Source of the DNA: a virus
Length of the DNA stretch: 64,000 nt
Virus record (IMG/VR): IMGVR_UViG_3300043446_003177
Location: 1 to 64,000 of that record
Reading direction: 5' to 3' (one strand)
Notes under the pieces: generated by a model
Databases searched by the model: none
What the model saw: only the letters and a program-made list of their open reading frames with translations
What the model was told of the DNA's origin: nothing
Made by a program: the position numbers and the translations under genes
Shown here: one piece after another, positions 3,001 to 40,857 of the stretch
Numbering within the stretch: the stretch's first letter is position 1
Layout of the letters: every line of letters begins with the position of its first letter

Positions 3001-3690
3001 GTGGATCCGGAACCATTAATGTTTCTGGATCTCTCAATGAAAACAGAAGATCTGTTGAAGTTGGATTCGGTACATTAACAGCACTTTCTGGATCTGCAGT
3101 TGCATTTGGTGCAAACCCAAGTGAAGATACTGCTTTAGGAACATTCTCGGGTGTCCTTCTTGAGAAGAAATCTGCTGCAGAAGTTGGTCTTGGAACCATC
3201 ATCATTTCCGGATCTGCTGGTGAAGACTTTGTTGGACAACAAATTCATCAAGGTTCCGGAACCATTAATGTTTCTGGAGCACTTATACAATCCTTTACTC
3301 CAGCAACAGAAGTTGGATCTGGATCTATTTCTGCACTTTCTGGTTCTGCAGAAGTATTTGGTGCAAACCCAGAAGAAGATACACTATTTGGAACATTCTC
3401 TGGTGTACTTGTAGAGAGTACTACAGCATCTGAAATTGGTATTGGAACCATTAGAGTTTCTGGTGATGCTGGAACATCTCCACTACAACCTTTTGTTGGT
3501 CTTGGAACCATTAATACTTCTGGTTCTCTGAATGAAAATAAAACATTCAGTTACATCTCATCTCCATATGATGATTATGGATTCATCATTAACACAACAG
3601 ATTATGATGAGAATTATGGTCTCGTAGTCGATCCAACTTCTTATATTGATTATGGTCCATTACTAGGACCTTATACTAATATTGATATTT
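1..3690 (+). repeat. Near-identical intragenic direct super-repeats
   Basis: ATTATGGTCCATTACTAGG occurs at 1, 1777 and 3649 (offsets 1776 and 1872 nt, both multiples of 3). Further shared blocks include ~530-930 vs ~2300-2700 and ~1100-1330 vs ~2875-3100. Confidence 0.9.
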
Positions 3691-14632: not shown

Positions 14633-14832
14633 GTGAAGGATTTAATAATAATGAACTGAAAGTTACAGTTCATACCGATGAAGTTCAAAAAATTCTTAAA
14701 GATTATAAGAGAATTAAAAGATACATGAAATCCTCTATTTTTGAAGTCAAGAATATGGATGGAACTGAAAAAGTAGTTAAAAATTTGTTAAAACATTTAG
14801 ACGACAACAATGGGGAAACATTATCTTCTTAA
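14629..14832 (+). CDS. Hypothetical protein
   Basis: ATGA overlap with the upstream gene; 67 aa. Confidence 0.6.
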   Translation: MSEGFNNNELKVTVHTDEVQKILKDYKRIKRYMKSSIFEVKNMDGTEKVVKNLLKHLDDNNGETLSS

Positions 14833-15136
14833 CCTATATGGATGTTCGTTTGTTCTTTTGAACAACGAGCGTTGTCTTATTGACTTATTAGAGTGTGCAG
14901 CAGAAGCAAGCGGTGCTACTGTGGTTCAAACTATATCTAAAAAGTTTGAACCACAAGGAGTAACCGTTATTTGTTTGTTGTCTGAAAGTCATATTAGTAT
15001 TCATACATGGCCAGAAGAAGGTAAGGCAGCAGTAGATGTATATACCTGTGGCGATTGTAATCCAAAGATTGGATGTGATATGATCATCCATCAACTTTTT
15101 GCTACTAATCATACGTTAAGTTATATTGAGAGATAG
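14810..15136 (+). CDS. speD: S-adenosylmethionine decarboxylase proenzyme (class 1B)
   Basis: GKHYLLNLYGC, FEPQGVT, LSESHISIHTWPE (E|S pyruvoyl cleavage site) and AAVDVYTCG. Confidence 0.93.
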   Translation: MGKHYLLNLYGCSFVLLNNERCLIDLLECAAEASGATVVQTISKKFEPQGVTVICLLSESHISIHTWPEEGKAAVDVYTCGDCNPKIGCDMIIHQLFATNHTLSYIER

Positions 15137-15142
15137 AAAAAT

Positions 15143-15158
15143 TGTATCAGGAAATACA
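15143..15158 (+). promoter_or_regulatory. NtcA-type binding site
   Basis: TGTATCAGGAAATACA matches TGTA-N8-TACA and sits just upstream of a sigma70-like promoter. Confidence 0.65.
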
Positions 15159-15166
15159 CACAAAAC

Positions 15167-15195
15167 TTGCTATATAAGTTGAATAGGGGTATAGT
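15167..15195 (+). promoter_or_regulatory. Sigma70-like promoter
   Basis: TTGCTA-17 nt-TATAGT; the predicted start near 15202 lies just before the CGTTCA aptamer 5' strand. Confidence 0.55.
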
Positions 15196-15205
15196 AATCC
15201 CCTAA

Positions 15206-15510
15206 CGTTCATCCTATGACTAAAGCACTTTTGCTTTTGGCATGGGTTCCACTTCTTTCTGTCTCTACGCCACGACTTATTCAAAATCCATATCCTGTGA
15301 CTATAAGTTGTGACGCGGCGTGGGAACTAATGGACATCGTTAAAAACGACGATGTAGTTTATCAGAAAAAAGAAGACCAACTGCTATTAGAACTCCGAAA
15401 GGATGTTATTCAAAGGTGCTAAAATTAAATAGGACGCAAGTAGGACGGCGGAACGGATCGTTCATTCGCTATTCGCAAATAGCGAACGCAAACCGCCTGA
15501 AGGAACGGGA
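15206..15510 (+). ncRNA. Tandem glutamine riboswitch-like leader (glnA/Downstream-peptide family); first unit encloses an ORF
   Basis: Unit 1: CGTTCA(15206), TCCTAT/ATAGGA stem, CGCAAG, GGAACG(15450-55). Unit 2: CGTTCA(15459), perfect 9-bp hairpin TTCGCTATT-CGCA-AATAGCGAA, CGCAAA, GAAGGAACGGG(15499-509). Lies upstream of a DUF4278-type ORF. Confidence 0.75.
15216..15422 (+). CDS. Small protein (68 aa) nested inside riboswitch unit 1
   Basis: Signal-like hydrophobic N-terminus and C-x35-C; apparent paralog at 62437..62604. Confidence 0.65.
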   Translation: MTKALLLLAWVPLLSVSTPRLIQNPYPVTISCDAAWELMDIVKNDDVVYQKKEDQLLLELRKDVIQRC

Positions 15511-15539
15511 CTAACCATCTCATTCTGGAGGAATCCCCA

Positions 15540-15677
15540 ATGTCTAAAGTAGTTTACCGTGGCGTTGAATACGATACGCAAAAGCGTTTAGAGTATCAAC
15601 AGCAGATGATGCAACAACCCCAACAATACAACGAAACCTATCGTGGTGTTAAGTTTGTAAAGGAGGGGCATAAGTGA
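15540..15677 (+). CDS. DUF4278-type 'downstream peptide' (45 aa, Gln-rich); absent from the ORF track
   Basis: MSKVVYRGVEYDTQKRLEYQQQMMQQPQQYNETYRGVKFVKEGHK has two YRGV motifs; GGAGGA RBS at 15527-32. Confidence 0.85.
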   Translation: MSKVVYRGVEYDTQKRLEYQQQMMQQPQQYNETYRGVKFVKEGHK

Positions 15678-15775
15678 TGCAGAAACTAAACTTCCTACAA
15701 ATTATCAAAGAAAAGAAGCAAAAAGAAGAAAGGCTTCGTAAAGCGTCTATTGCTACTCTGGTAGCATCAAAATAA
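15677..15775 (+). CDS. Small basic peptide (32 aa); absent from the ORF track
   Basis: MQKLNFLQIIKEKKQKEERLRKASIATLVASK; TGATG overlap, AGGAGG RBS at 15661, followed by a terminator. Confidence 0.65.
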   Translation: MQKLNFLQIIKEKKQKEERLRKASIATLVASK

Positions 15776-15778
15776 TTC

Positions 15779-15808
15779 AGAGGGGGACTTGACTCCCCCT
15801 CTTTTTTT
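15779..15808 (+). terminator. Rho-independent terminator overlapping a sigma70-like promoter
   Basis: AGAGGGGGA...TCCCCCTCT hairpin plus T-run; TTGACT(15789)-17 nt-TAGAAT(15812). Confidence 0.8.
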
Positions 15809-15840
15809 GTGTAGAATTATCCTTGTCGAGGTTGATAAAA

Positions 15841-16080
15841 ATGGATAGAGAAAAGCTTAAGCTAATCATAAAAAACCTTGAGTCTCTTGTTGAATGTCTC
15901 AAATCAGAAGTTTATTCTGATGTTAACTCTTATAAACAAGATATGAGATATGAAGAAGTAGCTCCATATATTGATGATTATGATGAGATTTTTTATGATG
16001 ATGAAGGAGATGATGATTTATTCAAATCAGTAAATCAAAAGTATAAACTAACAAACGATGATGATGGAGACGGATTGTGA
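15841..16080 (+). CDS. Acidic hypothetical protein
   Basis: MDREKLKLIIKNLESLVECLKSEVYSD with a D/E-rich tail. Confidence 0.7.
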   Translation: MDREKLKLIIKNLESLVECLKSEVYSDVNSYKQDMRYEEVAPYIDDYDEIFYDDEGDDDLFKSVNQKYKLTNDDDGDGL

Positions 16081-16802
16081 ATCTAATTAACGAAGAATTT
16101 GAATTCATGAAACCAGAAGTAAAACTGATCAGCGTTACTCCTGATGCAGAGAAACATATGGCTTACTGTGCCCGAGTAAGTAATCCACAGAATCAGGAGA
16201 ATGAAAAGTTTTCTGGACTGCTCAAGTATTGCATTCAACATCAACACTGGAGCATTTTTGAGCAGGCAATGATGACGGTTGAGATCAATACTACAAGAGG
16301 TATCGCGGCTCAAATCCTTCGTCATAGGTCTTTTACATATCAAGAATTTTCACAACGGTATGCTGATACAAATCTTTTGAATAAGACAATTCCACTTCCA
16401 GAACTTCGTCGTCAAGATACAAAGAATCGTCAGAATAGTATCGATGACCTTCCTGATTATCTCAAACTTACCTTGCTTGAAGATATTCGCGTTCTCTTTG
16501 AGCACTCTCAGCGCCTCTACAATCGCCTTCTAGAGAAGGGAGTAGCAAAGGAGTGTGCAAGGTTTGTATTGCCCCTAGCGACGCCTACACGCCTCTATAT
16601 GACCGGTTCTGTGAGGTCATGGCTACATTATATCGATCTTCGATCTGCACATGGTACACAGAAAGAACATATGGAGATTGCAGAACTTATTCGTTGTATT
16701 TTTATCTGCCAGTTTCCTGCAGTTTCTGAAGCAATGGGTTGGGTTCGCGGAGATCATTGTGCTGATTGTGAAAGCGTTCAACCATCAGTTCGCATAGACT
16801 AA
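16077..16802 (+). CDS. thyX: Flavin-dependent thymidylate synthase
   Basis: RHRSFTYQEFSQRY ThyX signature, H.SIFE, ECARFVLP, TQKEH. True start may be 16107. Confidence 0.95.
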   Translation: MNLINEEFEFMKPEVKLISVTPDAEKHMAYCARVSNPQNQENEKFSGLLKYCIQHQHWSIFEQAMMTVEINTTRGIAAQILRHRSFTYQEFSQRYADTNLLNKTIPLPELRRQDTKNRQNSIDDLPDYLKLTLLEDIRVLFEHSQRLYNRLLEKGVAKECARFVLPLATPTRLYMTGSVRSWLHYIDLRSAHGTQKEHMEIAELIRCIFICQFPAVSEAMGWVRGDHCADCESVQPSVRID

Positions 16803-40019: not shown

Positions 40020-40090
40020 GCGGGCATGGTGTAGCGGTAACATCTGAGCCTTCCAAGCTCCAGTCACGGGTTCGATCCCCGTTGCCCGCT
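40020..40090 (+). tRNA. tRNA-Gly(TCC)
   Basis: GCGGGCA/TGCCCGC acceptor, CTTCCAA anticodon loop, GGTTCGATCC T-arm. Confidence 0.9.
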
Positions 40091-40110
40091 CTTACCTTTA
40101 ATGGTAAATT

Positions 40111-40293
40111 ATGAACTTAAAAGAACCTAGAGTTAAAACAACACCACAGAATGTAAAAGAAGCGAATGAAGCACTTTTTACAGCAAAATGGAATCTTCCT
40201 CAAGCGGCAAAGCATTGTGGAATGTCTCAAAAAGAAATGAAGTTGACCTTTTTTGAGTATTTGAAGTATAATCCTATCACCTACGAAGGGTGA
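40111..40293 (+). CDS. Small HTH-like hypothetical protein
   Basis: WNLPQAAKHCGMSQKEMK. Confidence 0.6.
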   Translation: MNLKEPRVKTTPQNVKEANEALFTAKWNLPQAAKHCGMSQKEMKLTFFEYLKYNPITYEG

Positions 40294-40299
40294 TTTCTT

Positions 40300-40383
40300 G
40301 GGGCGGTGGTGGAAGTGGTAGACACATCAGACTTAAAATCTGCTGGGAGTAATCCCGTGGGGGTTCAAGTCCCCCTCGCCCTA
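40300..40383 (+). tRNA. tRNA-Leu(TAA)
   Basis: GGGGCGG/TCGCCCT acceptor, CAGA-CTTAAAA-TCTG, long variable arm, GGTTCAAGTCC. Confidence 0.92.
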
Positions 40384-40430
40384 CTGGAGGTTTTTTTAAC
40401 CTCTAAATAAACAAAAGTAGGAAAAGTCCT

Positions 40431-40700
40431 ATGAAATACAAAATTGATACGGCATATTGCTGGTACAATAAAGGAACTCAAATAGTTCTTATGTATTTCA
40501 TAAATCATATTCCATTTACTTTTGACGACGTTCCTGATAGTTACCTATACGATTCGGAAGTCATAGAGTCGGCAGATAAGCAAAGACGCTTTGAACCAGA
40601 GGATTTATATAGATCATCATTCTATTTGATTGATGAACAATGTCATCCAATGTTGTTTGAGGTTGAACTGGAAAATCCAGAAATGTTACCTGTTGATTGA
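40431..40700 (+). CDS. Hypothetical protein
   Basis: 89-aa ORF between tRNAs, preceded by CTAAATA. Confidence 0.65.
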   Translation: MKYKIDTAYCWYNKGTQIVLMYFINHIPFTFDDVPDSYLYDSEVIESADKQRRFEPEDLYRSSFYLIDEQCHPMLFEVELENPEMLPVD

Positions 40701-40701
40701 T

Positions 40702-40773
40702 GCCCTTGTAGCTCAGTGGTAGAGCAACGGTTTTGTAAACCGTTGGTCGCTGGTTCAAATCCAGTCGGGGGCT
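40702..40773 (+). tRNA. tRNA-Thr(TGT)
   Basis: GCCCTTG/CGGGGGC acceptor, ACGGT-TTTGTAA-ACCGT, GGTTCAAATCC. Confidence 0.93.
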
Positions 40774-40776
40774 TCC

Positions 40777-40857
40777 GCCTGAGTGGTGGAATGGTAGACA
40801 CGCATGACTTAGGATCATGTGCCGCAAGGCGTGAAGGTTCAAGTCCTTTCTCAGGCA
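40777..40857 (+). tRNA. tRNA-Leu(TAG)
   Basis: GCCTGAG/CTCAGGC acceptor, CATGA-CTTAGGA-TCATG, variable arm GCCGCAAGGC. Confidence 0.93.

Follow-up and report, generated by a model that had tools for sequence, protein, structure and literature searches.

A cyanophage operon predicted to combine an NtcA-type operator, a composite glutamine-sensing leader and a gene nested within that leader

Riboswitches are portrayed as compact elements of the leader, acting on genes that lie downstream, and the question raised by a short operon in the DNA analysed here is whether its leader is of that kind. This DNA (the window hereafter) comprises positions 1 to 64 000 of IMG/VR virus record IMGVR_UViG_3300043446_003177 and is part of a 172-kb record of a marine, T4-like cyanophage, with Synechococcus myoviruses as the closest deposited relatives. 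The operon lies at 15143–15810, between speD (14810–15136, PF02675, E 5e-34) and thyX (16077–16802, PF02511), and all its features given below are on the + strand. A preliminary description of the locus had recognised in it an NtcA box, two tandem glutamine aptamers and two small peptide genes. Our analysis indicates that the locus is probably a cyanophage counterpart of the gifB-type nitrogen-status module of the host, consisting of an NtcA-type operator, a composite, nested glutamine-sensing leader and three small genes in a single short transcription unit, one of these genes being enclosed by the first unit of the leader.

Each of the individual elements described earlier is present at its place. 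They are the palindrome TGTA-N8-TACA at 15143–15158 (TGTATCAGGAAATACA; GTA-N8-TAC core at 15144–15157), a sigma-70-like promoter, TTGCTA-N17-TATAGT, at 15167–15195 (9 of 12 consensus positions), CGTTCA at 15206 and 15459 with GGAACG at 15450 and 15502, and a strong Shine-Dalgarno sequence, GGAGG (15527–15531), separated by 8 nucleotides (nt) from the ATG at 15540. This ATG opens a reading frame for a peptide of 45 amino acids (aa; 15540–15677), which contains eight Gln and YRGV at residues 6–9 and 34–37; a basic 32-aa reading frame (15677–15775) starts from the ATG at 15677 and is coupled to the preceding stop codon (TGATG), and an intrinsic terminator (15779–15808) consists of a G+C-rich stem of 9 base pairs (bp; 15779–15802) followed by six T. 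The combination of an NtcA-type box, glutamine-riboswitch sequence and a DUF4278-like peptide, as in host gifB and in Prochlorococcus PMM1846 (PMC6212724, PMC6316151), was likewise upheld.

Relatives of the locus were fetched with a single 15-base junction probe, GGAACGGATCGTTCA, which retrieved at least 120 viral contigs; both units were measured in these and 124 loci were tallied. In phage S-PM2, the interval between speD and the thymidylate synthase gene td has an identical order of parts, namely a GTA-N8-TAC box, TTGACT-N17-TATAAT, two adjoining glutamine-aptamer matches, a YRG peptide (p192), a basic peptide (p193) and, at the end, a terminator and an MDREKL protein. The orthologous RNA of S-CREM1 is annotated as a glnA riboswitch (PMC9964418). 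Both differ from the window in that both hairpins of the RNA are compact and the nested gene is absent. In a search of 901 nt with Rfam, the glutamine-riboswitch assignment was borne out in part: one glutamine-I match was found at 15457–15511 (31.1 bits, E 1.3e-4, below the gathering score of 35), which covers unit 2 only, and unit 1 of the window was unmatched. At gathering thresholds, Rfam returned only four transfer RNAs (tRNAs) across the window.

The GTA-N8-TAC sequence is the published NtcA consensus (PMC6212724, PMC6316151), and in 90 of 114 related loci it occurs within 130 nt upstream of the RNA, compared with 4% of random 130-nt stretches. The significance of the palindrome derives from this conserved position, not from its frequency in the window, where three matches against 1.3 expected are at chance level (17 of 100 shuffled sequences reach three). 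The inner 8 bases of the box differ among loci, while its distance to the RNA is fixed. The relatives share the spacing TAC, 9 nt, TTGACT, 17 nt, TATAAT, approximately 5–7 nt, CGTTCA, and also TAC, 13 nt, TATATA; the window retains the second -10-like box TATATA at 15171–15176, overlapping the -35 hexamer. The TATAGT box of the window lies in the loop of a small hairpin, TAGGGG/CCCCTA, at 15184–15204 (-8.8 kcal/mol), the stem of which changes among relatives and yet stays complementary (GGTC/GACC, GTGTTA/TAACAC, GAGG/CCTC); loci that lack this hairpin (S-CREM1, DSL-LC02) have only the TATATA-type box, directly before the RNA.

What became of the NtcA box claimed earlier is therefore that its conservation held and its position did not conform to activation. 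The activating geometry, with the centre at about -41.5 and 22 nt before a TAN3T -10 box, was found neither in the window nor among the relatives; reckoned from the predicted -10 boxes, not from a mapped transcription start, the box is centred at about -51.5 (32-nt gap to TATAGT) or about -32.5 (13-nt gap to TATATA). Such positions, the chance-level frequency of the motif in the window and the fact that NtcA binding at the box is a prediction would suit a palindrome at 15143–15158 that serves a phage factor or another host factor, or is an upstream promoter element, in which case nitrogen would be sensed by the RNA only. We regard this as unlikely, as the sequence matches the published consensus and keeps a fixed distance despite its differing inner bases, as the comparable host genes gifB and PMM1846 have repressing NtcA sites, and as many NtcA sites are predicted across cyanophage genomes (PMC3037559). 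NtcA represses gifA, gifB and probably PMM1846 via sites near or over the core promoter (PMC6212724, PMC6316151), and by analogy with host gifB repression fits the window better than activation does. The box is thus a probable NtcA operator through which the operon would be shut off at high 2-oxoglutarate. Further TGTA-N8-TACA palindromes occur in the window at 1895–1910 and 3410–3425.

The leader that follows contains the two aptamer-like units of the preliminary description, but the first of them is 250 nt long (15206–15455) instead of the approximately 45 nt then assumed, and encloses a conserved open reading frame (ORF) of 68 codons that had been overlooked (ORF68, 15216–15422). The operon therefore comprises more than the two downstream peptides, both of which were correctly identified. 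In S-PM2, unit 1 is compact and reads CGUUCA-UCCC-AUAU-GGGA-CGCAAGUAAG; in the window, the corresponding flanks, CGUUCA-UCCUAU and AUAGGA-CGCAAGUAGG, are separated by 211 nt holding ORF68. Unit sizes among the relatives were bimodal, unit 1 measuring 37–61 or 215–254 nt and unit 2 38–52 or 167–237 nt. Among the 124 loci, a nested gene occupied the first hairpin in 33, the second in 53 (encoding 49–69 aa) and both in 11. The AUG was located 9–13 nt after CGTTCA in 85 of 86 gene-bearing units (21 nt in the single outlier), and many of the nested ORFs stop within the conserved core of the aptamer, for example as IGRK-UAA in AAGUAAG or DAKAD-UGA in CUGAAGG. In three loci (L032, L054 and L078) the second-hairpin ORF, of 69–92 aa, runs through the 3' core of the aptamer and ends 30–60 nt past it, thereby overlapping the entire 3' half of the sensor.

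By their pattern of substitution, the nested ORFs evolve as protein-coding sequence, because the ratio of nonsynonymous to synonymous change (dN/dS) is low and third codon positions carry an excess of changes. In the family of ORF68 the variable sites at the three codon positions numbered 32, 21 and 49, with a median dN/dS of 0.34; in a sister family of nested ORFs they numbered 46, 37 and 57, with a dN/dS of 0.23. Synonymous sites of ORF68 are nearly frozen in codons 1–16 and 35–47 and free elsewhere. Codons 35–47 (15318–15356), with nearly no synonymous change in 17 sequences, contain an 8-bp hairpin at 15334–15355. The same segment has an in-frame AUG (Met39) after GGGAAC, which may be an internal start or belong to an embedded RNA element.

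The ORF68 protein has 251 homologous metagenome clusters, all of them unnamed and without a Pfam or PHROG family, and a search of the ESM Atlas returned unnamed viral clusters only; no match to ORF68 was found by tblastn against deposited phages, and neither ORF68 nor the 32-aa peptide matched an entry in PHROGs or Pfam. Alignments of the nested proteins showed a hydrophobic N-terminus and two invariant cysteines, and a profile-profile alignment from Cys to Cys joined the first-hairpin and second-hairpin protein families (71% probability, E 3.6e-5). AlphaFold2 modelled ORF68 as an N-terminal helix and a helical hairpin (residues 32–43 and 50–67) with Cys32 and Cys68 at its ends; the mean predicted local distance difference test score was 70, and about 80 in the hairpin. 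In the family of ORF68 the N-terminus resembles a Sec signal peptide, in which K3 and a hydrophobic core are followed by small residues ahead of PQ or PR, and the product is probably a small exported two-cysteine protein. An assignment as lipoprotein, considered on account of ISC at residues 30–32, was dropped because the sister families lack a lipobox.

The insertion leaves the hairpin that carries it closed. The strand UCCUAU (15212–15217), which includes the first two bases (A and U) of the ORF68 start codon, pairs with AUAGGA (15429–15434) to form a stem designated P2a. Covariation in 84 gene-bearing units indicates that this long-range P2 stem is real: pair 3 was C-G in 46, U-A in 30 and U-G in 7, pair 4 A-U in 31, U-A in 30 and C-G in 15, and pair 5 A-U in 49 and U-A in 25. 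A local hairpin, CCUAUG/CAUGGG (15213–15246, -13.2 kcal/mol, z -3.1), would bury the AUG of ORF68 and is a candidate competitor of P2a in folding models; RNAalifold applied to unit 1 alone chose this local 5' hairpin and a mispaired P1 over P2a. Together with the nearly frozen synonymous sites, this hairpin points to constraints on ORF68 at the level of the RNA.

A gene in such a place could also be a passenger, that is, a mobile or shuffled ORF that sits in a tolerant hairpin loop and borrows the operon promoter with no link to glutamine; the first core may then be disabled, leaving one working sensor. Nested genes are indeed present or absent among close relatives and occur in either hairpin, Rfam sees unit 2 only, and the family model has a variable P2 loop. 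We nevertheless consider a passenger gene rather improbable. With a single exception, the start codons of the 86 gene-bearing units fall inside the 5' strand of P2 or immediately at its end, and have no leader or Shine-Dalgarno sequence of their own; the closing stem is kept through compensatory changes and the core nucleotides beside the insert are conserved; many nested ORFs use the core itself for termination (TGA in CUGAAGG, UAA in AAGUAAG); and the 5' end of ORF68 shows constraint on its synonymous sites.

The second departure of the leader from a conventional glutamine riboswitch concerns the relationship between its two units. The P1 pairing CGUUC/GAACG and the P2 hairpin directly after the conserved A are both present twice. 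An own P3 hairpin in each unit was not found; in its place the linkers of the two units pair with each other in an inter-unit helix, designated H (GGACGG at 15443–15448 with CCGCCU at 15493–15498), and because of this pairing the units are not autonomous. Pair counts for the two competing structures were obtained from an alignment of 34 compact double RNAs. In helix H, pair 41-86 was G-C in 11, U-A in 9 and A-U in 3 sequences and unpaired in none, pair 38-89 was G-C in 29, G-U in 4 and A-U in 1, and pair 34-94 was A-U in 26, G-U in 4 and G-C in 3. Separate P3 hairpins would leave 16 of 26 sequences without pair 34-41 and 14 of 23 without pair 86-94. Between the window and the relative L057, approximately 93% identical over ORF68, both strands of H are exchanged (GGACGG/CCGCCU versus AGCCGACU/AGCCGACU). 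The distribution of loop E, another element of the glutamine-I core, agrees with helix H: unit 1 has AAGUA without GAAG and unit 2 has GAAG without GUA, and a whole loop E results only when the 5' half of unit 1, helix H and the 3' half of unit 2 are combined (15438–15442 with 15499–15502).

The leader is thus likely, as judged from these sequence comparisons, to consist of a complete outer glutamine-I core, with H in the position of P3, and an inner, circularly permuted core on top of H. The outer core would be formed by P1 (15206–15210 with 15503–15507), P2a, the junction CGCAAGUA (15435–15442), which ends in the AGUA half of loop E, helix H, and then GAAG, which provides the GAA half of loop E and together with the 3' P1 strand GAACG occupies 15499–15507. 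The 5' P1 strand with the following A, CGUUC-A at 15206–15211, is invariant in all loci. The inner core would comprise the hairpin P1', GGAACG-GAU-CGUUC (15450–15463), the two strands of which a tandem arrangement would assign to P1 of unit 1 (3' strand) and to P1 of unit 2 (5' strand), the conserved A, the covarying hairpin P2b (15465–15486), which in the window is compact with 8 bp and the loop UCGCAA, and the junction CGCAAA (15487–15492). Minimum-energy folds of the window contain H and the GAU-closed P1' hairpin. In the solved glutamine-I structure, P1 forms the ligand site together with the CG of junction 2/3, and P3 extends to the side (PMC6698751); both cores of the window retain P1 and this CG.

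Two independent glutamine-I aptamers in series, each binding glutamine alone for a sharper response, as the term tandem in the preliminary description implied, are very unlikely: although there are two CGTTCA...GGAACG units and Rfam reports the S-PM2 RNA as two adjacent matches, the P3 hairpins that such aptamers require are unpaired in more than half of the sequences while the inter-unit helix covaries, neither unit has a whole loop E, and unit 1 scores only 24 bits in S-PM2 and is undetected in the window. A domain-swapped tandem, with the same H and with unit 1 and unit 2 each keeping its own P1, is a different matter, since the P1 pairs are invariant and covariation cannot separate it from the nested fold. 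We prefer the nested fold for its knot-free geometry and for the logic of loop E; a tandem pairing would require the 3' P1 strand to begin at the far end of H, only two bases away.

The leader shares with glutamine-I riboswitches (glnA motif, RF01739; gifB leader, PMC6212724) the P1 pairing CGUUC/GAACG, the A that follows it, P2, the ACG(C/G)AAGUA junction and GAAG, as well as its place in the 5' leader of a DUF4278 gene with the ribosome site just downstream. It differs from them in that P3 is a helix bearing a second, permuted core, in that the outer P2 spans 211 nt with a gene, and in its Rfam score, which is under the gathering threshold for unit 2 and absent for unit 1. Tandem glycine riboswitches resemble it in having two ligand cores in one leader joined by RNA-RNA contacts, whereas in the window the cores are nested via a shared Watson-Crick helix and one of them is circularly permuted.

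The gene directly downstream of the glutamine-aptamer sequence encodes a short YRG protein, the 45-aa DUF4278-like peptide (phrog_5049, E 1e-10), the sequence of which is the commonest allele of its family. Its match to PF14105 (19.1 bits, E 0.0017) is below the gathering score of 25.3, and 36 of 41 orthologues match this family at E ≤0.01 (best 1.7e-7). Y6, R7 and G8 are invariant, and Y34, R35 and G36 are invariant or nearly so. A sequence search of the PDB with a profile of the YRG peptide gave chance ribosomal matches only, at E >0.1. The conserved 32-aa peptide encoded after it is basic and helical, and in 48 loci the start codon of the second ORF overlaps the stop codon of the first. In S-CREM1, one fused 48-aa protein unites a YRG N-terminus (E 3e-6) with the basic helix (E 1e-4), and the reverse order, with the basic helix followed by two YRG motifs in one chain of 54–55 aa, occurs in nine loci (L012, L023, L025, L038, L040, L054, L078, L096 and L104); fusions in both orders suggest that the two peptides act together. 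In ten loci (L006, L030, L070, L079, L096, L102, L104, L111, L117 and L123) the second gene encodes, instead of the basic helix, a hydrophobic, membrane-type peptide of approximately 30 aa with a conserved IYAE or IYGE motif, and in L056 and L122 a second, longer YRG/DUF4278-like gene (46–53 aa) follows the first, giving two paralogues per operon.

The idea that a downstream peptide acts on glutamine synthetase, raised in the preliminary description, can be offered as a hypothesis only. DUF4278 corresponds to the N-terminal part of IF17, without which glutamine synthetase can still be inactivated, the inhibitory part being the IF7-like C-terminus (PMC6212724, PMC6316151). The 45-aa product represents the DUF4278 part only; by length, not by alignment with IF7, it has no room for the C-terminal moiety of IF17 after residue 82, and an IF7-like C-terminal region with the inactivating arginines was not found in it. 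A role in glutamine synthetase control is conjecture because the match is to the dispensable part. The host systems gifB and PMM1846 (PMC6212724, PMC6316151) share with the window the GTA-N8-TAC at the promoter, the glutamine aptamer in the leader and the DUF4278 product. They differ from it in that the window operon is phage-encoded, lacks this inhibitory C-terminus and has extra genes, one nested and one for the coupled basic peptide.

How the operon might work can be outlined by analogy with host gifB. High glutamine would stabilise the leader fold and expose GGAGG, acting as an ON switch, and the freed GGAGG would permit synthesis of the DUF4278-like peptide and its coupled basic partner, while NtcA would most likely repress at high 2-oxoglutarate. 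Because any ribosome on 15216–15422 has to open P2a, nested-gene translation and a folded outer sensor would be mutually exclusive; the local hairpin at 15213–15246 would also compete with P2a. Exclusion and competition together would wire nested-gene translation and glutamine sensing to each other, in either direction: the nested gene may be expressed when glutamine is scarce or when it is abundant. We tentatively propose, as a possibility somewhat short of even, a translation-coupled riboswitch in which glutamine binding by the outer core needs P2a, a nested gene free of ribosomes and an open local hairpin, and which toggles, depending on glutamine level and translation state, between the exported two-cysteine protein and the pair of DUF4278-like and basic peptides. 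If true, the leader would represent a natural riboswitch with a gene inside its aptamer, controlling both internal and downstream genes.

Several observations weigh against the module and the leader fold as set out here, in addition to the promoter position of the box and the invariance of P1. Helix H has in the window only six positions, including one G-U and one A-C, and P2a only 6 bp to close a 211-nt loop, with a stronger local hairpin competing. The sole Rfam match is under its gathering score. The gain and loss of nested genes between close relatives also fits passenger genes, and when a leader with GAAA in place of the insert was folded thermodynamically, the ribosome site was not clearly unmasked in a glutamine-dependent way. 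The leader is known here from its sequence, and glutamine binding and expression are predictions. The composite module nevertheless remains the reading that we consider probable.

Cyanophages are already known to have glutamine aptamers and NtcA boxes, and the combination of NtcA with a riboswitch on DUF4278 genes is known as well. A search of the literature, with Ames and Breaker (2011) outside the comparison, found no paper on genes inside this aptamer or on the interlocked double core. A survey of phages reported only two glutamine aptamers and concluded that riboswitches are rare in phages (PMC5473149). Many of the loci retrieved here with one probe are sub-threshold in Rfam or split by a gene, so that standard annotation undercounts glutamine aptamers of phages. 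When bacterial genome contigs were scanned with the same junction, the 120 matches listed lay in unrelated bacteria, were due to chance and showed no aptamer features. An aptamer that closes round a coding sequence would link metabolite sensing to translation in a manner beyond current models, and the locus offers a testable system for how cyanophages read the nitrogen status of their hosts, with a bearing on marine nitrogen and carbon turnover. The locus also brings to light three families of phage proteins that are very small, have no assigned function and are tied to glutamine.

Two further features of the window were noted. A near-consensus promoter, TTGACT-N17-TAGAAT (10 of 12 positions), at 15789–15817 overlaps the terminator of the operon, and downstream of it an 85-aa acidic protein is encoded at 15823–16080 (phrog_878, E 1.7e-14), the orthologue of S-PM2p194. 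The four tRNAs recognised by Rfam (50–72 bits) form a cluster on the + strand at 40020–40857.

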